Positions 17,359 through 35,730 of a DNA stretch of 64,000 nucleotides are shown here, piece after piece. Location of the stretch: assembly GCA_046563655.1 (NCBI GenBank), contig CM102285.1, positions 12,648,001-12,712,000 of the forward strand. Reading direction: 5' to 3'. The first letter of the stretch is position 1. Every line of letters starts with the position of its first letter. The position numbers were made by a program, and so were the translations under genes. The notes under the pieces are model-generated. The model was given only the letters and a program-made list of their open reading frames with translations. It made no database searches and had not been told where the DNA came from. Source of the DNA: Yuukianura sp. NJ FZ-2021 (taxonomy: Eukaryota).

Positions 17359-20300
17359 ATGGATGATATTCAAGGTAAGCCATTAAGATTCAGTTTATAG
17401 TAATCCGTAGTTCAGTAGTATCGTAGTATCGAACGTTTTCTAAAATATCTCTCATTGCCCTCTTTCAGATATTTGCCGAGTCTGTCGATCCGAAGGGTCT
17501 CCAGACCGACCCCTGTTTTATCCATGCGTTTGTACTGGAAGTATAAAGTATATCCACCAAGACTGTCTTACGCAATGGTTGAGATACAGCCGCAAAGAGT
17601 ACTGCGAACTATGCAATCACCGGTTTTCGTTTACACCAAGTAAGTTTACTTCAAAAATCAAAGTCACGGAGGATGTTGTGGACTGAGCTAATACTGTTTC
17701 TCGCTTTCAGTCTATGCTCCCGATATGCCGAAAAGGTTACCGATTAAGGATTTGATATATGGACTGCTTTCGAGCGTTGGGACTGCCTTCCGTTTCTGGT
17801 TCCATTACACGCTAGTGGCATTCTCGTGGTTAGGAGTTGTTCCTCTGTCAGCGTGCAGAATTCATCGGAGTCTGTTCGGAGGTTCCATCGCATCTGTTCT
17901 ATCTCTTCCAATAGATCTCTTCTCCACGTAAGAGTCGAACTTTTGCCAATTCAATGATTCATCTAAACCAAAAAGTGAGCGAATTCAGTATTTTTGTGCT
18001 TGCTTTTGGTAACAACTGATGTTGTAATTTAGCGAAAATATCTTGATCGATATTTTTCATGGATGCGTTGTGGTCATCTGTGCGCTCTCCGTCTTTATCA
18101 GCCTCGTTTGGCTCCGAGAACACATCGTACATGGCGGGGGCCCAGATTGGCTAATGGATCAGCCAGCACCGGTATGCCTTAAGATTTTGTCATCTTTCAC
18201 TTGTCATAGTTTTCAAGTTTTGTGCCTTTCTTGATTAGAACGAAGGTCCAGAGGCTGTCGCTGAGGAAGAAGTACTGAACGAGGACGAGATTCAAGGGAA
18301 CGGAAATGCTGCTGGAGCGGACGGGGATGGTGGTCCGATACCACATAACAACAACAATGTAATTGATCGCTTTCTAGAAACCTAGAAACCTTGTATTTTT
18401 CACTTCTAATCGATTTTTCTCATTTTGACTTTTAGAATCGGCGAGAACGAGGACGAGCAGATCGAAACAACGATGAAATGAACTGGCCAATGGATTGGGA
18501 CAGAGCTGGAGAAGAATTAACTTGGGAAAGACTTCTGGGACTTGATGGCTCTCTTTTATTCATCGAACATGTCTTTTGGGTCGTGTCACTCAACACTCTT
18601 TGTATCCTTGTCTTCGGTAAGCATTACTCGAACTAATTTAAACCATTCACGTGAACTAATTTCAATCGATGCTGCTTTCTTTTCAGAATTTTCACCATAC
18701 CACATCGGTTACTACATTCTTTGGGCTATGCAGCTCCAAGAATGGATTCAATACGCACATTTCGAAGGCCTCCTGACAACACTTGTTGGGTATTTAGTCA
18801 TTGGTATATCGCTCGTCCTGCTCCATGCCTTCGCAACGTTTTTTCGGCTCAGGAAGTAAGTTCAAAATCTTGATTTTTGAGAGAAATTTTGAAGACTTCT
18901 TGAATTAACTTTCTCTTTTTTGCAGAACGCGTAAAATCTTAGGGATTTCGTACGTTGTCGTTAAAGTTTGTCTGTTGTGTGTCGCCGAAGTTGGAATATT
19001 TCCATTGCTCTGCGGTTGGTGGCTGGATGTCTGTTCACTACCTCTCTTTGATGCGTCTTTGAAGGTATCCTGACAATTCTGTGTCAAAAATGTGAGACTA
19101 AACGTTAAAATTCGTTTGATTTTGTAGGACAGAGAAACTAGTTTTCTCAAAGCACCCGGTACAAGTATGTTTATGCACTGGCTCTTCGGTATGGTCTATG
19201 TCTTCTACTTTGCTTCGTTTGTTCTGCTGTTGAGAGAAGTACTGCGGCCAGGGGTGCTTTGGTTTCTACGGAACCTGAACGATCCAGATTATAATCCAGT
19301 TCAAGAAGTAAGTTGATTGTGAATAGAAAGCTTGAAGTTTTGTGTGATTGGACGACTAATTTCTGCCCTCTTGCTTTCAGATGATTCAGTTACCAATTGC
19401 CAAACACGTTCGGAGATTCTTGTTTTCTGGAATTCTTTTTGGCACTACTACGTTGCTCATGGTTTGGGGTCCAATTCGTGTCATAAAGAAAATTACACCA
19501 GCTTTTCTGCCATACAACTTCACGTTCACAACGTAAGTAAATGCTTCAGTACATTACAAGTTAAGGAAATATTCTTGATAATATTTCGTATTTCAATTTG
19601 CAGCGAAGCAACAAATGAAATGTCTTTGGAGTTGGTACTTTTACAAGTAAGTTTCCAGAAAGCCCCTTTAATTTTAAAGTTAAATATTTAAGCTAGAACT
19701 ATTAATATTAACATTTTATTTCATTTTAGGTAATGATGCCTGCTCTTCTCGAGCAAGGACACACACGAGAATGGATGAAGTCTATGATTCGCGGATGGTG
19801 CATTTGTGCATCTTGGTTTCTTGATTTACGATCCTACCTCCTTGGCGATGTCAATCTTTCAGACAATGTAAGTTTTAAGTTTCTTCAAAATAGAACTTTA
19901 ATTTTAAAGTTTAGTTACATGAGCTAAGGTGAGCTATAGAATCGATGTAGGTTATATTTTGAGCACTGTGTTTTCAAAGTAATGGATTCTAGTCCAAACT
20001 TTTCCTAACTACCATTGGAACGTCAAAAAGCAGATTGAGATAGGAATTAACAATTAGGAAGAAACTACGGCTGAAAGCACTCCATTTGTTTCGGACGAAA
20101 CTTGCAAATCTCTCGGTTAGGACGACACAAAGCGGAATGTTATCTGGTTCCGACTCTTTTCGATACTTGAGTGAATCTTCCGTTTTGTTTGTGTACTTGT
20201 ACATGTAACAAGATGGAATCTGGCTAACGGTATGAACTTTATGGAAAGCATCAGGTAAAATGGACACTGTGTTCTTAATCGATGCTGGATCAAAAGTTTC

Positions 20301-23300
20301 AGTTTCCAATGTTTTTAAAGTGACATTGTCCAGTCCTGGTTGCTGGACGATAATTTCTCCCTTCATTAGAATTAGAGAAACGTTATTTAGCGCAGGAGGC
20401 AAGTAATTCTCGAGTGTTAGTCCAGGATAATCTGCGACGAAAATAACGTTGGACGATCTTGTCCAGTTCCCAACTTCGGCAGAAATCTTGTCAAATACTT
20501 CCCCGCGCCAGTGTGAGAATTCATGAAGGAGCGGAAGTACCCAGGGTACTTCTTCCCAAGGGGACCATGGGGCCTTCAGAATGTCCACGCGTGGGTCAAA
20601 GATTCGTTGTTGAAATCGGCCATTGAGGGACTTCCAGACGTCAAAGTAAACTTGAATGTTGGTAACATTGTAAGGTTCAAGGTTTCGCGCAATGCAAGAT
20701 GCGTACTGTTTGGCCATGTCAGCGTGGCTACTCCATCGTTCATTGGTTGTCCAAACCTAGAAGTGATAAACCAAAATTAGTAATCTGCTACGTTTAGTGG
20801 ATTTGTTTACGTTAGGATCCAAATAGCGTTCTGCTCCAGTGACATAATCCTTGACAGTTATTTTGGTGTGCAGAGTGTCCCATGAGTAGACCATCATGTC
20901 CCAGGAGTAGCCGTACAAGCCTTTTGTCCAATTGTTGTAGCCCTTGATTAATCAGAACAGTTTTAAGAAAATTTTTAGTTAGAATTAACGAATTATGAAA
21001 TTTATTTCAAAACTTGTGGGTTTGAAATTGTTGAATTTTTGGCTAACTTTTGTGAGTGAATGAGTAAACGGAAGTGTGATTTGCAGTGACATGTAGAGGA
21101 ACAAGAGTGCTGTGATCCGATTTTCTTTTAAATTTGTAGGAGTTTCGGTTTTTGAAGTTGAAGCAGCGCCGTGTCCATTGCTGATTTTGGTTGTGGTAGG
21201 TTTTATCCCGGCAGATTTGACCTCTTGTGACCTGAATGCTTTCGGTCTAAAACGTTTTTGAAGTTCAAGTTTTAGGAGAAAAGAATAAGAAATGATTTTT
21301 TGATTTTTAGTTTTGTTGCAAAATGTTACCGCGATTTGTTGCGAATTGGTTTAGGTTTGAGTTGATACTGGCTATTTGTTGGCCACTTGAAATTTAGCAT
21401 GTCTGGTGAGCAGAAGAGCGTGAGCGAGGCCATGCAAACGTAGGGAAACATGCCTAGATAGATTGATTTAAAGTTATGTTTAGGTTATGTTTAAGTTAGG
21501 GTATTACAACGGTGACTTGATTGCTTAATATGACTTGCTGCAAGTTGTTTGTGCTTCTCGGGGGGATAAAGATAGTAATAGGATTAGGGATTTACCAATT
21601 TCGAAGAGCTGAGAATTCATTCCATGGAAGAGAAAGGAGAGGAGAAAGCCAAGGGGCTTTGTCCGTTGGAAATTGAGCAGAAATCCAGCCAACAGATCGT
21701 AAGCAAATCCTCCGAGATGGATTACGTAGTAAGCCAGGAATTCTTCTCCAAGGATTTCGCTAAATCAGCACCACAACAGATTCACTTTCATTCCCTTTTC
21801 TATTCTAACTTTCCCCGTCAGCAGCGATTTGCTGCTTAAAATGAAAAAGTTAGCATGATAGAATACCTGGCTGGCGACAGGATGCGATGCTTGGCAATAT
21901 TGCGCATGGAGTAGCCAGAGAACCAGTCAGCATCAATTTTCTTAATAGCAGCTAAGAAGTAGAGTAAAGTAAATTGAAATCTGAGCATAAAGTAGTTCCA
22001 GATAGGGCATTTCTGTTCAGGTTGAGCTGGCTGAGTCAAATTGTCCAATGAACTGCAAAGAATATTGAAATTTTGAGTGAAATGATGTATAAAATTTTGG
22101 AAATTTTTGGAAAATTGTACAGGAAGGCTGTAGCGTTTGAGCCGGAGAGGAGAATGACTGTTAGAGCAAACAAGTACGAGTGGTTGTTCCATCTTGATTT
22201 GTCGAGAAGGAGAAAGTAGAGATATGGAATGAGGAAGAGAAAGCAGGAGGTGCGGAATTTGTAGCCCAAACAAATTCCTAGGCTTCCTGTTACAAAAGAA
22301 GAAAGTTGCAAATTTTGAAACAGGAATTTTGAAAATTTTGGAAGAAAATGTTGTCCGGTTTGAGTTGTTTCTTTACCGATCCACATTATAGAGTAGAGAA
22401 CGCAAGCAACTTGAACCGAAACCGGCTTGATTAGGGAAAATAGAGGGAAGAAACAGTGGTTTCGGTTTCCGAATCGGATGTCCGCATCTTCAAGTCCTCT
22501 TTCTTGGAAAACATCCAAGAACATACATAATCCTAGGAGAAAGTTATGCCAAAGAGGGAACGATTAGATCATTTTTTGTTGTTGAGATTTTCTGTTTTGT
22601 GAATCAAAAGCCCGGGGAAGGAGAAAGTGCTAAGATTTTTACTTACCAAAAAGAAACCGAAATAATCCTATGCCTCTGGCGTCGGTTTGCCTAAAAAGGT
22701 ATTTTCTAAATTCGTTGTAGGATTTTGGCACTAAAGTACAAAGGATTTTGAAAATGGAGTAAATTTTGGCCATGTTTTTTAGAATAGCGTTAGTATCGAT
22801 CCTTATGTGCCTTGGACCTTATAACTTGGTAGTGCTAAGGTACTTTCTCGTCGTGCCTTTCTTGTTCAACTGACTTAAAATCCGTTCTTCCGTTATCTTA
22901 GGAAACTGACTGGCTTTCTCTCACTCAAGTCTAGCCAAAAACCAAGCCAAGATTTTTTATTCTGCTACTCTGGCGTCCTTATACTACTTTTCTCCCGGTT
23001 TTCCAACCTTAACTTGTTCTAACACTCTCGTCGTCTACTCGTTCTAACGCTCTAGAGCACGTGAAAGCAATTTCCTTTTGGTTAGAGCTAGGAACAAGGG
23101 CGGAGTGTTGAGTTGACTCTCACAGAAGATTATCTTTGTTCCATTCCGCCACATAGTACATAGGCGGTGAAAGGCCGTGGTGAAAGTTTCACCTGAAGTA
23201 AACCAAGTTAGGTTGAAAGTGAACCTAACGTGGTGCGAGCGGTGGAGAGTAATGGACTAAAGTCTAGGTTTGTTATGTGCAGAAATGATGTAATGAAAAT

Positions 23301-25070
23301 GAAATGGGAGAGGCGTGTAATGTAATACGAGTCGAGGGAAACATTTGTACTTATGGTTTTGTGGATTTACACTGGGTTATGGACAGTTAAATGAAAACGA
23401 GTGGGACAGAATGTGTTATGACCGGAATAAAACAGTAGGATGTCTGATGTTATGTACTTTTACATAGTGTTTTCCATAATGGTTTGATTTGATTTTCTAG
23501 AGTACGGACGTTATTGTGCCAGCGGGTAATGGAAACGACCCAGTTCAGAATGGGCAGGATGAGGGATTCGCAGAAGAGGAAATGGACGTGCCGATGGCTC
23601 CTGAAGGGGATTTGCAACAACAAGCTCCAGTAGCTGCGGCGGATCAGGGTGGATTTGGATTTGGACTGGGCGGAGGCCTGGGAGCAGCACATCAAGCTCT
23701 GTTGCTAAGAGACAGTCCTACGGAGTTTCATCCCTACCGATGCCCGAAGTGGTTTCACTTCAAGGTATACGCCTATGATTAATGATTTATGTTGAGACGG
23801 AGTTTTGGAAGTTAATTAACTTTGGGAATTATGAAGTGATTGGTTGGTTCCAGGTTGGAGTACTGATTATGTTCATGGCGGCTACGCTGAGTGTTGTGAG
23901 TTTCGCGGTATTGACAGTCCCGGGTAAGTGAAGATGACAAAAGCCTTCTAAGTGTCGTGTTGAATTAATGGTTGAGATTTTGGCTTCCAAAGTTTTGGTT
24001 TATTTTGCAGTGAGCGTTGGGCGAGCTGTTATGAGCTATTGGCTTCAGACGAAAGGAGAAGGGATTCATGAATTGTATACGACGGCAACAGGGCTTTATG
24101 TAACGTGGATAGGAATTCGATGTTTAATTATTTTGAGCACTTGGATTCCCAAAGGATGGGCCGTGGTTTTGAACACGCTGAAAACATGGAGTCTTACTGT
24201 AAGCATTTTTAGAGTGTTAGCAATGATTTGTAGATTTGTTCTAATTTCTAATCCGATTTTTAGGTAACGAAAGCTGTAATAGCAATGGTAATTTTGATTG
24301 GAGTGATTCCGTACCTCTGTGGGCTGCTGTTTGAACTAGTCGTCATCACCCCGATTCGGATTCCAATCAGTCAATCCCCGATTCACATTGCAAGTGAAAA
24401 CTGGGTCATGGGGACGCTGTATATTAAAATTGCTTGTGCTGGCACAATGATGACCCCTCCAAACTTTTGGCTTCGTCGAACTTTAGAACGAGTAAGTTCT
24501 GCAAAATTGAATTTCGAATTTAATGAGAGTTTCGGATGTTTACTTTTGTCTTTTGAAATTCTAGCTGTACAACAATGGCATTCGGAACATCGATTTGAAT
24601 CTAATCATCCAAGAATTGGCTGCTCCGTGCATTGTTGGATTTGGCTTGGCCCTCGCAATCCCTTATGTGATAAGCAAAACCGTTGTACCTCTCTTTGGTA
24701 AGTGAAAGCACAACATGCTTCATGCTTCAAACATTATCCATGCTTTTGAATCTAAAGTTCTGGTTTTGTATAGTTACGAATTTGGAAACGCTGAATTTAG
24801 TGGAGCGCAGAATCTTTCCGCTGATTCTTGTGCTCTTCATCATTTACGGAATTATTTTGTTCCAAATTCGCCAGTTTACGAAATTATACGAGCACATCAA
24901 GAATGACAAGTAAGTTTTCGAAAACAAAAATGAATTTTAGAAAACGGTAAAGCAAGATGTGATTTTTTGAAAATGCTTTCAGATACTTGGTGGGAAGACG
25001 ATTGGTCAACTACGAACGCCCTCCGCCAACACCGAAACTCCAGGCAGTGCCAACGGCAGTGGTTCAGTAG
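17359..25070 (+). CDS. MARCHF6: E3 ubiquitin ligase MARCHF6 (TEB4/Doa10), multi-exon
   Basis: The spliced N-terminus [62 protein letters not shown] is a RING-CH domain. Also present: [10 protein letters not shown], the TD-domain segment [16 protein letters not shown], many TM segments and the C-terminal [20 protein letters not shown]. Confidence 0.97.
19989..22773 (-). CDS. GGCX: Vitamin K-dependent gamma-glutamyl carboxylase, nested antisense in MARCH6 intron 19868-23500
   Basis: Motifs [28 protein letters not shown] (catalytic Lys region), [23 protein letters not shown] and [17 protein letters not shown] at 22773, stop at 19989. Confidence 0.96.
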
Positions 25071-25513
25071 TCTCTATTTCGAAATTCAAATTGTCAACTT
25101 TAAATTCACTTTGAAACGTTGATCCCACCACCACACTTCACACCTTGAGATAAAATCTTTGTCTTGAAACTTGTGTTAACACTTCTTAACACTTTAGGTA
25201 GATTTATGAACAGTTTTAGAAATCAATGCTCTTTTTGTGAGTATGTCAAACATTATTTTTTGTGGAAGCCTCTTGCGTTATTTTAAAAAGTATTTTATTC
25301 CTAAGGCAGGTATACTTATTGTGCTTAGGCTGTCTAACGTTTAATAGCAATCAAATGTAAATAGAGTGAAAGTGTTTCAAATTCAGACTGAATTTTCTGA
25401 ACGTTTGGAGGTTAAGAATTTAATATTAGAGTTTTACAGTAAGGTTCAAGAAGTCTAAGTATATTTACTGTAGGTTTTGAAGTAAACACTAATTAAAATT
25501 AAGTTTGTTTGAT

Positions 25514-27334
25514 CTATTCCTTTGCTCTGCTCATTTTGCGCTGAATCATGTCTTTCAATTTATCATTGAGAAGGCGGTCCGTTTCTTCTCCTTCCCTTAT
25601 GATCTCCATGTGGGGCTGAGAGCATGTGGAGTACTTGGGCCCACGTCCCGCCGGTGCTATGATGTTGTACAGCTCTTCCACGGTTTTCTTTGATAGAAGT
25701 TCGGCATTTAGCATTGATTGAGGACTCAGCGGATAGTTTTCGTACGAGAAGATCCATTCGTTTGGCGTTGGAAGCTTTCTTTCGCAAATTGCCAAAATTT
25801 CTTGGCGAAGGACTTGGCAAAAATCGTCCAGAGGCTTAAATATTCAGACAGGAAAAACATTAGGACAAAAGCAAAACTGAATTTTGACGATTTCTCACAT
25901 TCAGAATTCATGATCAAAATTTTATCAAAATTTTTGTGAGTTTTACCAAGTCATTGGCGTCATAACCGAAAGGATTCTCTGTGTAGGCAACAAAAACGGA
26001 AAAATTAGAAAAGTGAATTTAGAGTTTCGACTTTTTAAATTTTCTGTTACCAATTTCCCAGCCGATGCTCAAAATTCCTAAAATCCGTGAAAGTTGAAAA
26101 GTCAAATTTCAAAATTTAGTTGAGAATTCGTTAAAGGGCAGACTTTTTTTTATAATTTAAGCAGTTAGAGTTAATCATATATTTAATAATAGTTAATAAT
26201 AATAGTTAATAATATATTTATTTGCTTTACCCAGCAAAAAGAACGAAGTGAGTCCAACTACTGGAACTGTGTACCACTTCAAATTGGAAACCAACTGAAA
26301 TGGTAAAGCCAACAAGTACATCCATGTCGAATGATGCAAACTAAACAATTTGCACACAATTGTTGAATTAGTTGTAATTAAAAGTTAACTAATTAAGAGT
26401 TAATTGAAATTTCAATTAACTTACTGAACTGAGTATGCCAAGGGGATTGGCGTGCGCAATATCCGTTCAAATCCCGTGACGCATTCCATTAGGCCAATCA
26501 CCGCTGCACGAAACACGGTTTTAGTTAACATTGCATTGCAATTCAAACAAAATTCGAAATTGGATGCTTTCAAAGACCAAAATTTTGAAAATCTGAACAT
26601 ACTTTTCGTTTTTTTTTTAATTCGTACCGATTTCCATTGATGAGACTATGTATGGTTCGGCCATATTCTTTTCATTGACAGTATTGACGTAGCTTGATAT
26701 GTAGTAGACCAGTTCAAGTGGAATGTTTGAGGGCGTGTAGTAGTCATGGGCCATGTATTTGCAATGTTGCACCTTCATCTTCCTTTGACTTTTCAGCGAA
26801 ATGTTTGAAGTAGGTGTGGAGAAGCGTCTGAGGTGATTGATTAGTGGTTTCAGATCATCAAAATCATGTGAGTACTCTTCACGTAGGTAGTGTTTAGTAG
26901 CAAACACAAAAGCAATTAGAAGATTAATCGCTGATTTCTTCTCTACGATATGGTAGCCTTCTGTCTCCTTCACTCCAATCCAAATACACCGTGTGAGCGT
27001 CCGCAAATGAAGAGTCATTTCGGACCAAAACTTTCTCCCTTCCCAGTACCTTCAAAATTTCAAAATTTCGACATTTTAACCTTCTTTTCAGAGTAAATTT
27101 AAATTTTCTATTTTTGAATTACCTATCGTAGGCCGTGTCAGTGCGAAAAACCAGGAGCAAGCCAATGACCACGCCCAAAATTGAAATCAAGGAATCCGGA
27201 ATGTCCAAAGTCACTGAAGGAATGGTCAAGTGGACATAGACTATGGCACTTGTGTACAGAACGACTATGACCAAATGCCACCAGATTTCTATGATGACTG
27301 TCCCCTTGAACCTAAGCATCAAGGGGGTCATCAT
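25514..27334 (-). CDS. Bestrophin-like anion channel of the YneE/VCCN/UPF0187 type, 7 exons (27334-27123, 27049-26628, 26503-26425, 26340-26231, 26077-26051, 25978-25947, 25834-25514)
   Basis: The spliced protein has GLLLVFRTDTAYDRYWEGRKFW, AINLLIAFVFATKHYLREE, ERILRTPIPLAYSVHL and GWEIENPFGYDANDLPLDDFC. All junctions are GT-AG and in frame. Confidence 0.92.
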
Positions 27335-30300
27335 TTTGAAAACAATTTAGAAAAACCTAATTATTGATCAAGGAAGATGTGTTTGGAACTAAAGATTTTT
27401 GAAAATTGAGAACAGAACTTATCAAGGTACATCACGCATTACGAAAATGTGAATGATTGAAACGGTTTAGGAAAAGTGCTGTGATGATATTGGTGTGATG
27501 TAGGTGTGCTGATGTGATGCAGGGTCAAACAGTCTGAGATTAAGAATTGACATGAGGCAGATGTTTCTTGACTTGATCCGATTTTAAACGTATTAGCGAC
27601 ATATAAACAAAATTGGCATTAAAAACCATGTTCTGCTCATTTCTTATTGCGAATTAAACTATTGAAGGAACTTAAAACACAATACTTTGCATACTAAAAG
27701 GTTGAAGCACTTAAGGTTGAAGATACATCAATTCAATTTCCTACTTACAAAAACATACTGTTCAGCCCTTTGTGTTAAAACACTGAAAATTTAGTATTCC
27801 TTGTTAGTTCTAAACTAAGAGCTCGAAAATTAGAGAATTCGTAAAGAGACTTTTTTGTAAAGCCACAAATTCAATTTCAAAATTTTGATTAGAGAAAATC
27901 TCTTCTGTTTGAGTCTGAAAATTTGAAAATTAAGAATTTCGAAACTTCAGAGAAACTTTGTAGAGCGCTGGAAGCGTCAAGGCCGACTGGATAACGCTAA
28001 TTACATGACATTACTTCCCTCCCACTGACTTTCACAAGTTACCAAAGAAAGTTTTCCATTGTGACCTCCTGGAACACAGTTTAGATTTTAGATTCGTTTT
28101 TCTTTCTAAAAACCGCATTGCAGCACAACGCACAAGAGAGAAAATGGAAAAGGAAACCACATGGCCCTTGCCAAAGTTCAAAATTTAAAAGCCCCATGAC
28201 CCATTCATCTACTAGTTATATGCTTCGTTTTTTGAAAAATTTCACAAAAATATTTTTGAGGTCTAGGCTAAAGAAAATAAGCAAATGAAAACCAGAAGTT
28301 ATTGCGGCACAGACTTTGGATCTCACGAGTAAAGTAAACCGGTTCAGAATTGGCAAACGAATTTCAGCATTACTGAGTTTTCCCAGCGATCCGAAAAGTT
28401 TGTTCACAAAATTTTGAAACTTTGAAAAACTTTTCTCAAGAAAACTTGAAAGTTGAATTTTCTTTTTCTCTTTGATGTTGTTAGGCATGCTATCGTCTAC
28501 TCAACTCTTGTTACATAACGAAATGTAAATACTATAAGAACCAACTCCACTTCATTTTAAAGTGAAAGTCCTGATTTTCACTTCTTTTTAGAACGAAAAA
28601 CATTCAAATCTCCACGGTAAGAAGCAATTGACGTCATCAAGGGAGAAGGTCCAGCGTTTTCTAAACAAATTCTTGAAAAATCTTCGTGATGCATAAGAAG
28701 TATTAGAGAATGAAAAGTGTAGCGTAAGTTTTAGAAATTTAAAAAAAATAAAAGAAGAGAATGTGGCATTCGCTGGCCTTCAGTTTTCTTAAATCTGCAC
28801 AGATCTGAGAAAAATGACACTCTGGAGCTCTGATTCCCAGAAAAAAAGAGCCCTTAAGGGTACCAGCACAAGTTTTACTAACTTTTCTTTCGCCTTTCTC
28901 TGTCACTCCTAAGCCCTTTCAATGATTTCCTAAAGACGCCAGCAGACCTTTCACATTCTGGACGAAGATTCATGCTTTTTTTGTTTCCCAGAAGACGTCT
29001 TTCAGTTTTACTTTCTTTCTTTCTTTAAAAACGAGGTTTTTAGAAAAGAGTTTTCATAGAAATAGTCGTTTTGTAAAAAGCGGCACTTACTTGCACAAAC
29101 AGCACTTTCTCGTCTGTAATCTTCTTTAACGTCACTTGGACTGCTAATTTCTGAAGTTTGCTGAGACGTGACAACAGTTTTTCAAAGGCTAGTACGTTGG
29201 AACTAAAAATTTTACACCGAATTGGACACTGAAATAAAATTTTGAGCGAGGAAATTTGAAGAGAAGTAAAACTATTCTGCAGGGTTTTGGCCGTTAAAAA
29301 ACCGTTTTCGGCTTAAACTACTTTTTTGAAATTGACGCAATTAAAGTTTCGGCAAAACGGAAAGGAATTGGGAGAAAGTTGGTTGAAGATGAAGAAAGGT
29401 AACGAGCCAACTGGGACTTGGTTTTTCATTTGATACGTCTGCAGTATAATAATAGTTTAGTGTCATCATTGCACTAGAAACTCAATTTTGTACAGTACGG
29501 TTCGAAAGATTTTAGAAAAAATTTTCTCCCTTACTACCTTCAAAACCAGACGCTTGAACTTTCTCCTCAAATTTTTCTTGTACTTGAAATTTTTCTCTCG
29601 ATATCTTGGAAACAGAAAACGAGAAAATCGGATCCAATTTTATGAAGAAGGCTTGGTTGACCCGAGACATAAAATGTTAAGCCATTAAATGTCAAATCGA
29701 ATCGCCTATAAGCCACTGACCACTGACCATTATGACCCAGCAGCCAGTCCACTTTTTTCTGTCTCTAACGATCCGTCACGTTTCTCCGCTTTTTCTAAGA
29801 AATGATCCACTCCAATGACCACGCCCATGACAACTCTCCACGACAAATCATTATCGAACCCACCAAAGTCTCATTTCAAGTGCTAACAAAAATCTGAAGA
29901 ACGCCAATTTCCAGCTCCATCCGCCCAACTTACTTTCTCTTCCTTTTGCTGCCCAATTTGTTCAGTTGCTATTGAAAATTTGGACTTTTGAGAAGAAAAG
30001 GCGACTGGACATGAAAAATTTATAAAGTTGGACCCAGCCCTAGCCGTTTTTGGAACATGATTGGTATGCTGCTACATGAACTTACACTTTTCCACCTCCG
30101 TTGCCAGTGAAAAGGAGGAAGACGGCAGTTCATGGTCTATGTTCAAATAAATCTCTATTTTGAAAAGGAAGTGGAAGCATACCACAGAAGAGTTAACTTT
30201 TACTGAAAAAAGGGAAAGTAACATAACTGGCCATGGGTGAACCGTTGTAGAAAAAGTGGGAGAAAGTTGGCCTTGGCCTTGTCCATTTTTTGGACCATAA

Positions 30301-33300
30301 GTTACAATTCTGGAACCAAAATTGGTCCTGCCATTTCCATATTCCGCTGTTTTGACTTTACATTTTGTTATGAACTCTACATATTTTCAGAAAACAAAAT
30401 TTTTTTTACTTTCTCTTTTTCATAAAAATCAGAGCTACGCCAGTCACCTCGCCGCATCAATGGATGAAATTTTAAAACTTTCTGATTACATCCCTCTCAG
30501 TGCTACTAGAAATGAAGTTGGAACTGTACAAAATTCTAGTGCAGAATATAAAAAAAAAAGCATGGTAGAATGCATTTTTACATGAAATTTGGTGTAACTT
30601 TTAGAGCCTTAGGGTGTGGTGTATGGTCCTCTGTTAGCAATAAATTCAACAATAGTGTTAAGTTATGCTAAGTTATAAACAGTAAAAGTAGCTATACAAT
30701 GTATATTTTAAACAACTTTGTGACGATAATTCCATTTCCCAAGGGAGTCATAGTGTAAAAAGTAAAAGACTTTATGGAAAGTAGGTAAGCAATTAAAATT
30801 TCAACTTATGATGATAACCCGTGCGAAATTCTTCCATTTTACAGCATTGCGTGTTCAAACCTTTCTCTTCAACTACTTTTTCTTATAAAAGAACTAACGT
30901 CTACTGCAGCACAACTTTTTCCCAAGGGAATTGATAGACTCTCCGCCTCCTCCGCCTCTCCATTTTCTAAAATCATGGTTCCACCTTAGTTGAAAAATAG
31001 GCTAACGTTCCTTTACTTTAAATCCAAGCCTGAAGTCTAACCTTAGGTAAAGTGAAAAATGAGAGCGAGGGGGGTTAGGCTGACGTAGGAGAGAAAATTG
31101 ACTTTCTAACTGCTTTGAGGTAGAATAATTTGGAATTTGGGGCTGAAAGCCCAGCTCCAGTTTTAGCAAAAGTTAATTTGGAGACTCCGGAGCCTGAGAT
31201 TGAATGGGTGAAAGTGGAAATAACTTTCTCTGATCTCCCATGTCCAAAGGAAAGTAATTTCAAAAGGCTTGGGGAGTTATCGGTCCAATGTCCAAAAATA
31301 ACCAAAAAACTGACATGTTTGGTGCAAAAATTAGCGAAATTCTTCAATTTTGTGAAAGTACAGTAAAAACTATAAACTCTGCTTTAGTATGCAAGTTGAC
31401 CCTTAACACAATCCATTTTGACACACATTTTTAAACAAAAAGAAAAAATTTGAGAAACTTTTTTTTTGAAAAGTCAGAACATGCTGTAAAACATTGAGTA
31501 AACAACTGTCCCGTTGTTAACCCGTGTCCAGCTTCCAAGTGATTACCCAAGGGAATTGCTAGTTTTTTGAATCCGTTGAACCCTGCTGCTATTTCGATGC
31601 ATTTTTTTTTCTGAAAAAGCGAATCCCATCATTTACCAGTTTCAAACTGTAAAAACTCGAGACTTCTCTCCCATTGAAATTCTGTTCAAGATTGTAGGAG
31701 AAAGTCCTCGTCCGTTCGTCCATTTATGGCCTTCCAGAAAAAGCCTCCCGCTGTCCTCTCCATCCCAAATACGTCCAAAACCCACCCGAACCAGCATCTT
31801 CTGTCTCCCTATTCCCTGCTCTACCATTTCCTAATAAGACTCTCCTTTCCATAGCCTAACGTAGGTTTTTCTGTCTTCTTCGTCTTCCTTAACTTTAACG
31901 TTAGGCAGTTCTGTCGTCTTCTGCACCAAAGACGGCATCTTTCACCTCTCCGCTTTCCAATTTTTGTTCCAGAAAGGATTGTGTCTTGTCGCAATGCGTA
32001 AATTGCTCAAACTGGATCACACTTTTTTCTTTGAGAGAGAGAAAGCAAGCCAAGAAAAACAATGGACAAGAACTTTTTCTAACACACATTCCCTAACTAA
32101 CATAAGGTGACCTTGACCTTGATCTGGAAAGCTCCTTGGCTAATGAAGGCACTTCGGTTATGCTCTCAATCTGTCTTGTCACGGTGGTTTTCTGGAAAAC
32201 TGTGGGGGTGGAAAGTTTGTGTTTAATCCACCGCCACACTTTCTCCATTGTAGTTTCGATTTTAATCTAAACTTTCCCTGAGGGAGTTTCTTCGTTCCAT
32301 AAGCGTAAAACAGAACCATAAAAAATGCGGGAAATTTTGATTTTGTACGAGTTTCTCTCAAGTTTCTCTCTCTTATCCTTTGTATTATTCAACACAAACT
32401 TTCTAAAAACAACGCTGTTCCGATGATCTCTGTGTTCAAGGGTCCGGAGTTGGTATGGTGTTAAGATGAGCACAAAAAGCAGACAGCTCTGGCAGAACCG
32501 CTAATGTATTTGAGTTTGTCCAGGAACAATGCAAATCTCATTAAATATTTGGCACTATGGTTTTAGTGGAGCTTTTAGGCTAACAAGCTACGTATAAGCA
32601 TCAATCTCCTCCTCCTCCAACTGACGCAACCAAGGGCTGCTCCAGCGTCTAAAAACTACGGCTGAAGAGTTGAAAAAACTTCAAGGTCGTGACCCAATTT
32701 AAACCGAGACCGCACCACAACGTGCTAAATTTCACTTCTTTGTTCTAAAACTAAACTGAATACTGTACATTACGTGCCTACACTTTTCAGTGTTTTGCCT
32801 GTTTCAAATTCTGATCAGAGAAAGCAACAATAAAAGAGAAATTGCCGAAATTTTGACATGTGCAACATAATTTAATTTGAGCAAATCATTGAAGTGAAAG
32901 CACTTTAGCTCGTTTTCATTTCATTAAATTTTGTCGTTTTCTGCCAAATTTTATTATTTCAGAGACGGAGAAAGTAATGGCAAGTGTTATATTCATTTCA
33001 ATTTTGAAATTAAATATTAAATCTGTCATTTTAAGTACCTACTTTCTCCGCCTCTCGGTTTTTGGTTTTTGGCATAAAAGAAAGCCTGAGCAATAAAAAA
33101 TTTCCAAAATGAGAAACCCATAAACGCTAAACTTTGCTTTAAACTTTTGCTGTTGTTATTGCCGTCCTTCTTTGTGCCAAAAAATAAACCGATTTTCTGC
33201 ATCCGTGAAACTTATTACTTTTCAACTTTCTCCAAAATTAGTTTTCTTGTAAGCAAAAGTTTAGCTCGTAGTTTACGCTTTTTATAAAAACAAGTTGTTT

Positions 33301-35730
33301 TTTCCGCATGTCCATGTCACTCCTCAATTCCTTTCATGTTCAGTGCTGGTTTCTTCCTCTTCAACCCAAGCTCTTGCTGAGTTGATGCCAAGGTTAAAAG
33401 CGAAAACGAATCGACTGAAAGAAAAAAGTCCATAGGTTTCATAAACTATTTTTCTCTGCTCCTGTCATTCTCCATTTCAGTACACAACGAAATGCGTTTT
33501 TCTCTCTAAATTTTTATTTATTTCAAACTGTATAGAATGTTTTCAACGTAGGGATTTGTAGTAATCGTAGCGTAAGCGTTGTACGTAACTCTAATTTAGA
33601 ATTCAACTGAGTCCACACAAACAAAGAGAAAGCAATTTCTAAGGATTAATTTTGTTCAAATACTACTACATGCGGTGGGAAGAATGAAATCAAGTCACAG
33701 GGGCGGAATTAAAGTGAAAACGTGGAGACGAAAAAACAATTGAACTCGAACACACGCATTTTTAAGCAAACAAAGACTGCTCAAAATGGGCCAATCGAAT
33801 AAATTTGCGTCACACTTTTTCTCATTATTTCGCTTTCACTTTAGCTGCTTTCACTTTCATAAAAAAAAATAATGCAATAATGCAAAAAGCAACAACAACA
33901 ACTTACAAAGCTTAAATGAGAAATCAGAAAATGTTTTTTATGTTTAGAGCATTTTAGTTTGAATTTTAGTGACTCTGCTCATGTTAAGCATAGGAAAACT
34001 AGTGAATTCATCATGAGCACGAGCATAAATAAAAACTGTGCAATCGCGTCTGTAGAAGACATCTGAAGCCTTTGTTGTTCCGTTTTGTTCGTCTTTTGTG
34101 TAATGAGCTGTTTTAAAAAGAACAAAATGTTGACTAAGAGCCAGAGGATACACGTCAGTTATAACACAGAGTCTAATGGCTACAAATAAAGTCCTTGAGT
34201 TTTTTAAAAAACATGGAATAAATCATGGGACTCAACGTCCAAATATTTGTTTTGCCTAAAGTACAAGCAGTACAAGTTCAGAAGAAGCAAAGGAGCTTTA
34301 GTTTGGTTTGAGTGTTCCAAGAATTGTGATATTTTGCGGAATCTTGAGTTACGCAGGAGAAACCCGCCTGTTCCTGTTTCTAGTCATCATCACTTCATCT
34401 CTCCGCTTTCAAAATGACTGATTTTCCCTAAGAGAGAGAAGACAGTGGAGTGATGAGAGGCAGAACACGGATGGGACCGGGACAGGCTAGGCTAGCTTAA
34501 CCTAAACATCCACCCGAGTCAGGTAAAGACTTCGCTTCATCTCTGCCTAACTTGTTTTCAAGAAATGAGGAAGAATTTGTTATTTGGTGAAGAATTTTAA
34601 GCTTCTATAAACCTACCTCCTCCGCTATTGCTTACTTTCTCTTGACTTAAGTTCTTAGTTACTAGGCTTAACGTATAGCTTAGAAAACAGATCAGGCACC
34701 GAAATTTAATAAAGTAGAAAACCTCATTTTCCATGTAATTGCGTCAACAGTTCCCGTTATAGCTTTGACTCTATTAATAAATTGAGTTGCTTAAAGGCTT
34801 TATTCGATTCGATCTCTAACAAATCTAGATTAAGAAAGCAAAAGAAGCAATAACACAACAAAAAAAAGATCTTGCAGAAGTACGGGAGCTAACATCATTC
34901 GTCACTATTTTCACTTTCACTTGCTTTCACCTAATGAGGTTCTAGCAAAACGCTTTGGAACTGACGACGCTTCTTGTCTCGTAAGTGGTAAACTCCCTTA
35001 TTGCTAAGCAACAAAATTTCATTTTTTGGATCCGTTAAGACCACCAATTTTTCAATTTCCGTTTTCGATTTCATTCGTGCCCTTTTCAAGTAAAAGGAAC
35101 AAGGAAAAGGAAGATGTTTACATGTTTGCTTAACCCAGAAATTCACATCCGAAACCTGCCTGAAACCAGGACGCGACGAAATTTCAAACTTTCCTTGCCT
35201 TTCTCTTTTTCTTCGGATTTTCCATCCTGTACAACACTTACGTTACAATTTGTTCACAAATATTATTCTTCAACTCCAGTTTTGCGTGGTTGCCGGAAAA
35301 GGGAAAGTTCTTTGCACATTTTTAGCATTTGTTTAAACAATTTTTAGTACTATCTCCTTCCGCTATTTTGCTTTGAAACACTTGGCATAATGGTTTGAAG
35401 ATGTAGAAGAGAAGATGCGTTTGTTTGAATCAAAAACTACAAATTGTGACAATTTTTTGAAAGTGGGAGGCATTAGGATGGGAATGGAAAACATTTGCAT
35501 GCTGCTGGCATACAGAGTAACGCTTGAGTTCATCCCGCGTTGGATGGCATAAAAATAAACACTGAATTTTATTTCTTCCTTTCTCAACGTCATGTTTTGT
35601 TCAAATAGAGCACGGAATTCCATTTCTAATTCACAGTTGTTAGAATTCCAGCGGGGATATCATATGGAGCTAAACTGAAGACTTTTACGTTCTGAGAAAC
35701 TTGAATTGACACAAGTAGTTCAGTTAGTTC

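Follow-up and report, generated by a model that had tools for sequence, protein, structure and literature searches.

How does a bestrophin of the bacterial, plant and fungal kind come to lie among animal genes, and is it a working part of the genome that carries it? The question is raised by a locus in the assembly of Yuukianura sp. NJ FZ-2021 (GCA_046563655.1, contig CM102285.1), where a stretch of 64,000 nucleotides (positions 12,648,001 to 12,712,000 of the forward strand; here called the window) holds a single bestrophin-type gene on its minus strand at 25514-27334. A preliminary description of the window had proposed that an anion channel gene was passed here from a fungus to an invertebrate. 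We regard the gene as a functional springtail gene of the Bestrophin_2 family, one paralogue of a springtail family that most likely stems from one ancient transfer from a fungus into an early springtail.

The gene consists of 7 exons with a coding sequence of 1203 nt (400 codons and a TAG stop). The six introns of 73, 124, 84, 153, 72 and 112 nt all have GT..AG borders and a content of guanine plus cytosine (GC) of 0.21-0.30. Enumeration of GT/AG junctions near the open blocks gave five stop-free in-frame combinations, and the 7-exon model was chosen since it is the only one that restores the conserved blocks of the family. The intact seven-exon gene of the preliminary description is thereby confirmed, and its four quoted motifs are all found in the spliced protein, the first straddling intron 1 and the last straddling intron 5. 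The start codon is backed by an identical ATG in the orthologue L027 and by the Folsomia protein P0003, which aligns from the first residues (L-numbers denote metagenome loci and P-numbers database proteins). The window is free of N bases, and a second copy of the bestrophin gene was not found within it. The parts of the gene are given below; intron sites are written as window residue and phase, counts are loci with the intron over loci covering the site, a bar marks a splice position, and PF25539 is the Pfam family Bestrophin_2.

27123..27334, minus strand: exon 1, ATG at 27334-27332, N-terminal part with the first transmembrane helices, as far as the split Arg codon of AYDR|YWEGR; PF25539 49.8 bits, profile 12-77.
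27050..27122, minus strand: intron 1, 73 nt, phase 2, site 70.2, common to 14/17 covering springtail-like genomic loci.
26628..27049, minus strand: exon 2, the largest exon, with the KHYLREEY block and the variable loop; PF25539 45.5 bits, profile 79-189.
26504..26627, minus strand: intron 2, 124 nt, phase 1, site 211.1, common to 17/20 covering springtail-like genomic loci.
26425..26503, minus strand: exon 3, carrying the FERILRTPIPLAYS block; PF25539 profile 194-216.
26341..26424, minus strand: intron 3, 84 nt, site 237.2, only in the window gene and its orthologue L027 (1/20 springtail-like loci).
26231..26340, minus strand: exon 4; PF25539 27.1 bits, profile 218-253.
26078..26230, minus strand: intron 4, 153 nt, site 274.1, only in the window gene and L027 (1/21 springtail-like loci).
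26051..26077, minus strand: exon 5, a 27-nt micro-exon encoding GILSIGWEI, required to restore a block conserved in all relatives.
25979..26050, minus strand: intron 5, 72 nt, site 283.1, private to the window gene (0/21 springtail-like loci, L027 included).
25947..25978, minus strand: exon 6, a 32-nt micro-exon encoding ENPFGYDANDL.
25835..25946, minus strand: intron 6, 112 nt, phase 0, site 294.0, common to 17/19 covering springtail-like genomic loci.
25514..25834, minus strand: exon 7, stop TAG at 25516-25514, C-terminal extension past the Pfam domain, no Pfam match.

Exons 1-4 match PF25539 ('Bacterial/Fungal Bestrophin protein') collinearly over profile positions 12-253 of 288, and exons 1, 2 and 4 each reach the cut-off of 27 bits alone. 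No exon matches the animal Bestrophin family PF01062 at E<=0.1. Full-length relatives score 249-265 bits with PF25539; with PF01062, springtail relatives reach 19.3 and 16.9 bits, below the cut-off of 24.2, or do not match. The window gene and animal BEST1-4 belong to a common superfamily. A profile built from 8 relatives, 7 springtail-like and 1 Mortierella-like, found 22 distinct sequences in the PDB at E<=0.01. Nineteen of them are bacterial bestrophin chains from entries with five chains (E 1e-34 to 1e-35); the others are one rhodopsin-bestrophin fusion and two forms of a 372-aa 'Bestrophin-like protein'. Chains with the molecule name of an animal BEST1-4 were not among these matches. The PF25539 matches, the absence of PF01062 and the PDB matches together place the window gene in the bacterial, plant and fungal branch, and so the assignment to the YneE/VCCN/UPF0187 proteins instead of animal BEST1-4, as proposed earlier, was right.

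The solved bacterial bestrophins (PDB 4wd7/4wd8, 6iv0-6ivw, 5x87, 6jlf) are homologous across both halves of the domain (profile E 1e-35, 5 chains). Unlike the window protein they have only about 300 residues and lack the eukaryotic loop and the C-terminal extension. The 'Bestrophin-like protein' (7ek1-7ek3) and the rhodopsin-bestrophin fusion (7pl9) belong to the same family and are more distant than the bacterial chains (profile E 1e-19 to 1e-27); 7ek1 is presumably the plant thylakoid channel VCCN1. The pore-helix block, which is hydrophobic and conserved, and the ENPFG-type block align with cyanobacterial homologues and, in the profile of relatives, with a solved bacterial chain. Judged from homology to the five-chain bacterial structures, the window protein should assemble as a pentameric ion channel. 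The solved bacterial bestrophin has been reported as a cation channel and other relatives as anion channels. Because the bacterial protein is reported to conduct cations, ion selectivity cannot be transferred from its structure, and it is not predictable from sequence; we lean slightly towards anion conductance.

The window gene is under strong purifying selection. Over 398 codons aligned with L027 the proteins are 87% identical, and the proportion of nonsynonymous differences (pN) is 0.085 against a saturated synonymous proportion (pS) of 0.84. L027 is intact from ATG to TGA and has the exon pattern of the window gene save for intron 5, and all family-invariant residues are kept in the window protein. 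Together with the AT-rich GT..AG introns, the low pN marks the gene as domesticated. Some contigs lack the introns of a genomic paralogue and agree with it exactly across the predicted junctions (L012 with L023, L006 with L020). These contigs are most simply transcripts, and hence members of the family, here paralogues of the window gene, are spliced in nature; the splice of intron 6 is seen in one of them (L012 against L023).

Where do the relatives of this protein occur? Clade labels used here come from the named proteins of database searches and from one look-up for P0302 (labelled Dikarya-like), which found Basidiomycota and Ascomycota PF25539 clusters nearest; this is a lead only. A search with exon 2 matched 88 proteins, with Folsomia candida and Allacma fusca first, followed, among those with names, by about 70 from Mortierellomycota and then by Glomeromycota and Basidiobolus. 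The profile search found 4562 proteins at E<=1e-30, and names were taken from the best 120 of these 4562. The named animals among them are springtails only, namely Allacma fusca (1 protein), Folsomia candida (3), Orchesella cincta (4) and O. dallaii (1). Orthologues spread broadly through Metazoa, which according to the preliminary description would speak against a transfer, are thus not seen among these best 120. The other named proteins in this set are all fungal, about 75 from Mortierellomycota and then Umbelopsis, Glomeromycota, Zoopagomycota, Bifiguratus and Calcarisporiella. A library of clusters at 50% identity gave 9074 clusters at E<=0.001, with a Mortierella protein as the top representative.

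In pairwise comparisons, the best hits of the window protein score 441 bits in springtails (55% identity), 387 bits in Mortierellomycota (52%), 309 bits in Zoopagomycota (48%), 301 bits in Glomeromycota (43%), 300 bits in Mucoromycotina (38%) and 191 bits in cyanobacteria (38%). Identities to Mortierellomycota proteins range from 39 to 52% over about 360 residues (P0013 from Mortierella antarctica and P0026 from Lobosporangium transversale are examples), nearly level with those to other springtails (43-60%). The Mortierellomycota proteins share N-terminal, pore-helix and C-terminal signatures with the window protein, and in the alignment several residue signatures are exclusive to springtails and Mortierellomycota. 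Their loci differ from the window gene in a GC of about 0.5, and their loop and tail are longer. The eukaryotic loop and the C-terminal extension, which is encoded by exon 7, are common to springtails and early-diverging fungi (Mucoromycotina, Glomeromycota and Zoopagomycota have the extension) and both are lacking in cyanobacteria; the extension is also lacking in the Dikarya-like P0302. The C-terminal block that the preliminary description took to be fungal-like is thus indeed shared with early-diverging fungi. A bacterial donor was considered and dropped: cyanobacterial proteins reach 37-39% identity and less than half of the Mortierellomycota bit score, and they are without the loop and the tail.

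The springtail family appears to hold ten or more paralogue lineages, and in the trees the window gene and L027 form a separate lineage that has no named orthologue. Among the metagenome loci L007-L042, 21 share one contig-name prefix and have springtail-type introns; some are partial. Each of the three Folsomia paralogues has a close counterpart among them (L032, L029, L010), as does the window gene (L027), and more than one animal species may be represented.

A maximum likelihood tree (79 rows, 445 columns, LG+C20+F+G4, cyanobacterial outgroup) was calculated from rows picked out of a 144-row FastTree set; six long-branch representatives, most redundant Mortierellomycota, short loci and the Dikarya-like loci were left out. 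One clade unites the 27 springtail-like rows with the 14 Mortierellomycota rows; it has an ultrafast bootstrap of 100, a Shimodaira-Hasegawa-like approximate likelihood ratio test (SH-aLRT) value of 99 (100/99) and a stem of 0.64. Internally this joint clade is a polytomy, in which Mortierellomycota are one clade (100/100) next to about eight springtail-like lineages. Its sister (88/74) is a clade of Zoopagomycota, Mucoromycotina, Glomeromycota and some unnamed representatives (98/90). When the springtail-like rows were constrained to stay together, the tree was 2.82 log-likelihood units better than that of the free search (p of the approximately unbiased (AU) test 0.585). Since the tree with one springtail clade scores higher, a single acquisition is the best reading of these data. 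L025, L026 and L028 are intronless, have a GC of 0.51-0.53, one of them on a 149.8-kb contig, and group with P0217, P0277 and P0297 amid the otherwise fungal part; they could represent bacterial sequences that fall among eukaryotic ones, or else eukaryotes with few introns. L037, a short locus of 1016 bases with a GC of 0.53, is a long branch in the clade of springtails and Mortierellomycota; of the springtail sites, 211.1 bears an intron in it.

Introns provide a second line of evidence. We modelled 56 metagenome loci with our own splice script and classed them with FastTree. For the Mortierella-like locus L008 the script model had spurious introns at 68.2 and 74.0, and its single intron was read outside that model; in the cDNA-like loci L014 and L016, both Glomeromycota-like, what seem to be introns of 69-93 nt may be in-frame insertions. 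The three sites that are shared in springtails are occupied as follows.

Springtail-like genomic (23 loci, GC 0.35-0.44): 70.2 in 14/17, 211.1 in 17/20, 294.0 in 17/19.
Mortierella-like (3 loci): 70.2 in 0/2, 211.1 in 0/3, 294.0 in 0/3.
Glomeromycota-like (5 loci): 70.2 in 1/4, 211.1 in 0/5, 294.0 in 0/4.
Dikarya-like (18 loci): 70.2 in 0/12, 211.1 in 0/14, 294.0 in 0/1.

The comparison of intron positions with fungal homologues, suggested at the outset as a check, thus sets most springtail-like genes apart from the Mortierella-like ones at all three sites, and one Glomeromycota-like locus, L015, is an exception at 70.2. At intron 1 the springtail-like L007 has, by eye, the identical AG|GT..AG|G junction. 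The Mortierella-like loci have zero or one intron, which lies elsewhere (47.0 in L008, 67.1 in L009, none in L011); that of L009 sits 10 nt upstream of the springtail site 70.2. Dikarya-like loci have other common sites, 85.0 and 234.1. Introns that are shared across paralogues lend independent support to one integration, after which introns were gained and the gene then duplicated. The remaining introns of the window gene, at 237.2, 274.1 and 283.1, are probably young, judging from their narrow distribution. Intron 5 splits GWEI|ENPFG, and in L027 (4198-4256) the two micro-exons of 27 and 32 nt are one 59-nt exon; the difference between these close species suggests that the intron was gained recently or else lost in L027.

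A most likely course of events can be put together from these data. A fungal gene would have entered an early springtail once, with Mortierellomycota as the nearest sampled donor lineage. Mortierellomycota are soil moulds and share their habitat with springtails. After integration the gene would have gained spliceosomal introns at three sites and taken on a host-like composition; many duplications would have followed, with vertical inheritance since. The coding sequence of the window gene has a GC of 0.445 against 0.39-0.44 in host exons. The fuller version, in which a gene from the Mortierellomycota stem entered before the living springtail orders split, gained the three introns and radiated into at least ten paralogue lineages, is one for which we consider the chances evenly balanced.

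The gene is physically linked to native host genes, two of which are given below.

24264..24913, plus strand: C-terminal exons of a MARCHF6-type E3 ligase, with MARCHF6_C (PF23113) at 24264-24701 (68 bits) and at 24674-24913 (28.3 bits, profile 137-180 of 180).
19989..22563, minus strand: exons of a vitamin K-dependent gamma-carboxylase (HTTM and lumenal domain; PF22777 and PF05090).

As the MARCHF6 match is on the plus strand, the bestrophin gene and the MARCHF6-type gene stand tail to tail, in the animal neighbourhood that the preliminary description had seen; an annexin repeat, a DAO domain and a TPR were also found in the gap-free window. Within 18521-24913, the gamma-carboxylase gene lies upstream of the MARCH6-type C-terminal exons at 23.5-24.9 kb. 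Plus-strand open frames at 18.5-19.7 kb gave no Pfam match, and the approximately 6.5 kb upstream of the bestrophin start (27335-34000) hold no long open frame and no obvious gene. A gamma-carboxylase exon has its best matches in Orchesella cincta and O. dallaii (52-53%) and Folsomia candida (50%), followed at about 40-47% by a nemertean, molluscs and other arthropods, mostly arthropods. By the identities of this one exon the host is springtail-like and not close to Orchesella or Folsomia. The window stretch was found in six DNA runs from three studies, and run contigs were aligned to 23500-28500; X6, a soil metagenome with two 151-base pieces only, was left out. A contig of X1 (record 2) spans 24526-25840, and one of X4 (record 17), from another study and under another organism label, spans 23500-25940 with 61 differences. 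The MARCH6 end and exon 7 of the bestrophin gene are therefore joined in two independent data sets, so that the junction at which a chimeric assembly had been feared is covered by contigs of two studies over 24.5-25.9 kb. In addition, the DNA downstream of L027 matches the MARCH6 exons of the window at 77-81%.

Fungal contamination or a chimeric assembly, which the fungal type of the protein and the gut fungi carried by soil animals might bring to mind, is excluded for practical purposes by the bridging contigs of two studies and the synteny of L027. The argument from introns and host contiguity that had been made before holds, as the window is without gaps, the introns resemble those of the host, being rich in AT, and occupy sites at which the fungal loci have none (L015 at 70.2 apart), and the family is present in the genomes of four named springtail species. 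It is also very improbable that the gene is a decaying or silent relic, an unexpressed pseudogene. Three lineage-specific introns and two micro-exons could be mis-spliced, but the 400 open codons, the canonical splice sites and the family-invariant residues have been kept, and the orthologue in L027 is intact with a pN far below the saturated pS.

The origin of the family is where the weighing is closer, and several observations weigh against a fungal transfer as we reconstruct it. Names are available for the best 120 of 4562 proteins, and absence from other animals therefore holds for close relatives alone. Every locus gene model derives from our own automated splice script. The third-position GC of the window gene (0.53) is somewhat higher than that of host exons (0.35-0.49). 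Two constraints were put to the AU test, one uniting the 35 named fungi and one uniting all 48 non-springtail eukaryote-like rows; both led to the same tree, with springtails beside the cyanobacterial outgroup, which is 15.17 log-likelihood units worse and is not rejected (p-AU 0.214). For this reason the donor and the nesting inside fungi are favoured and not proven. Mortierellomycota stand outside the clade of Zoopagomycota, Mucoromycotina and Glomeromycota (98/90), contrary to the expected fungal species tree, and paralogy, a change of rate or a different history are thus possible. Finally, the Glomeromycota-like L015 (GC 0.28, sister to Funneliformis in FastTree) has an intron (748-842) exactly at 70.2 and in the same phase, inside the Arg codon of AYDR|YWEGR. 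Fungi may have had this intron ancestrally, or it may have been gained in parallel at an AG|G site; therefore not all three shared introns are certainly gains after the transfer. The tree without nesting would suit vertical descent from the common ancestor of animals and fungi, with the gene kept in springtails and lost in all other animals, and so would the host-type introns and composition. We consider this improbable all the same, because very many independent losses would be required, no other named animal is found in the best 120 of 4562 although fungi at only 40-45% identity are, and the best metazoan scores in the tables of the O. cincta study are 35-42 bits (PMC4987106). Moreover, Mortierellomycota proteins are nearly as close to the window protein as those of other springtails, and the joint clade (100/99) and the exclusive residue signatures tie the two groups together. 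Somewhat less improbable, yet still unlikely, is another direction or donor, be it that the ancestor of Mortierellomycota received the gene from a springtail, or that a third, unsampled lineage gave it to both. The tight Mortierellomycota clade within the polytomy would fit it, as would a quick tree in which Mortierellomycota were nested among springtail-like lineages (SH-aLRT 87) and the position of the joint clade outside other Mucoromycota. However, springtails are one clade in the best tree found, the nearest outgroups are all fungal, the C-terminal extension also occurs in Mucoromycotina, Glomeromycota and Zoopagomycota, the Mortierella-like loci have none of the three springtail introns, and a route from springtail to fungus needs two transfers. 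We therefore hold to a transfer from a fungus into an early springtail. The part of the preliminary proposal that stands is that fungi are the nearest non-animal relatives and that a transfer is supported; the AU test leaves it short of proof, and the transfer is not private to this genome, being old and shared by springtails, and has been reported before.

Earlier genome studies had indeed come across the family. The Orchesella cincta genome paper (Faddeeva-Vakhrusheva et al. 2016, PMC4987106) reports 253 genes acquired by horizontal gene transfer (HGT), 30.4% of them fungal. Its Table S6 includes four bestrophin/UPF0187 members among the HGT genes; they score 35-42 against Metazoa and 199-291 against non-metazoan sequences, with best matches in Rhizophagus irregularis and an h of about 160-249. 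In another table, the family orthomcl5020 (Bestrophin/UPF0187) counts 10 genes for O. cincta and 0 for the other compared species (PMC4987106). The word 'bestrophin' does not occur in that paper's main text, and the family stands in its supplementary tables only (PMC4987106). For Folsomia candida, 809 foreign genes were reported, 330 of them common with O. cincta and 87 with Rhizophagus as the source (PMC5490193); two supplementary files of that paper hold no bestrophin, UPF0187 or gene tags, and the HGT list may sit elsewhere (PMC5490193). A literature search found no paper that combines bestrophin, springtails and horizontal gene transfer. The O. cincta family agrees with the window gene in Pfam family, in its place in the springtail-like clade and in the non-metazoan origin given in those tables; the closest non-animal relative was R. 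irregularis in 2016, whereas with today's data it is found in Mortierellomycota. The window protein is 43-52% identical to the O. cincta proteins. Thus, the window gene is a further member, in a separate paralogue lineage, of a springtail family already listed as transferred. The present analysis adds that the tie to Mortierellomycota is closer, that three introns are family-wide, that synteny with MARCH6 is conserved, and how large the family is in environmental springtail DNA.

To our knowledge, the acquisition of membrane channels by animals is much rarer in the literature than that of secreted enzymes. Here a channel has been kept and multiplied, to 10 genes in O. cincta according to the tables of that study (PMC4987106) and to the 21 metagenome loci of one prefix, some of them partial, in our data, and it is therefore probably useful to springtails. 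The family also offers a clean case of intron acquisition by a foreign gene, with three sites that predate the radiation and younger ones that differ between close species. The link between springtails and Mortierellomycota refines a picture of the donor that was formerly based on best matches to Rhizophagus. As Folsomia candida is a laboratory species, the function of a fungal-type bestrophin in an animal becomes tractable. If the transfer took place as proposed, springtails would carry a whole animal-specific ion-channel family of fungal origin, and the window gene would be a previously unnamed paralogue lineage of it with three further young introns. It is pure speculation that these channels might contribute to the unusual ion and water balance of springtails in soil, for example in the ventral tube.

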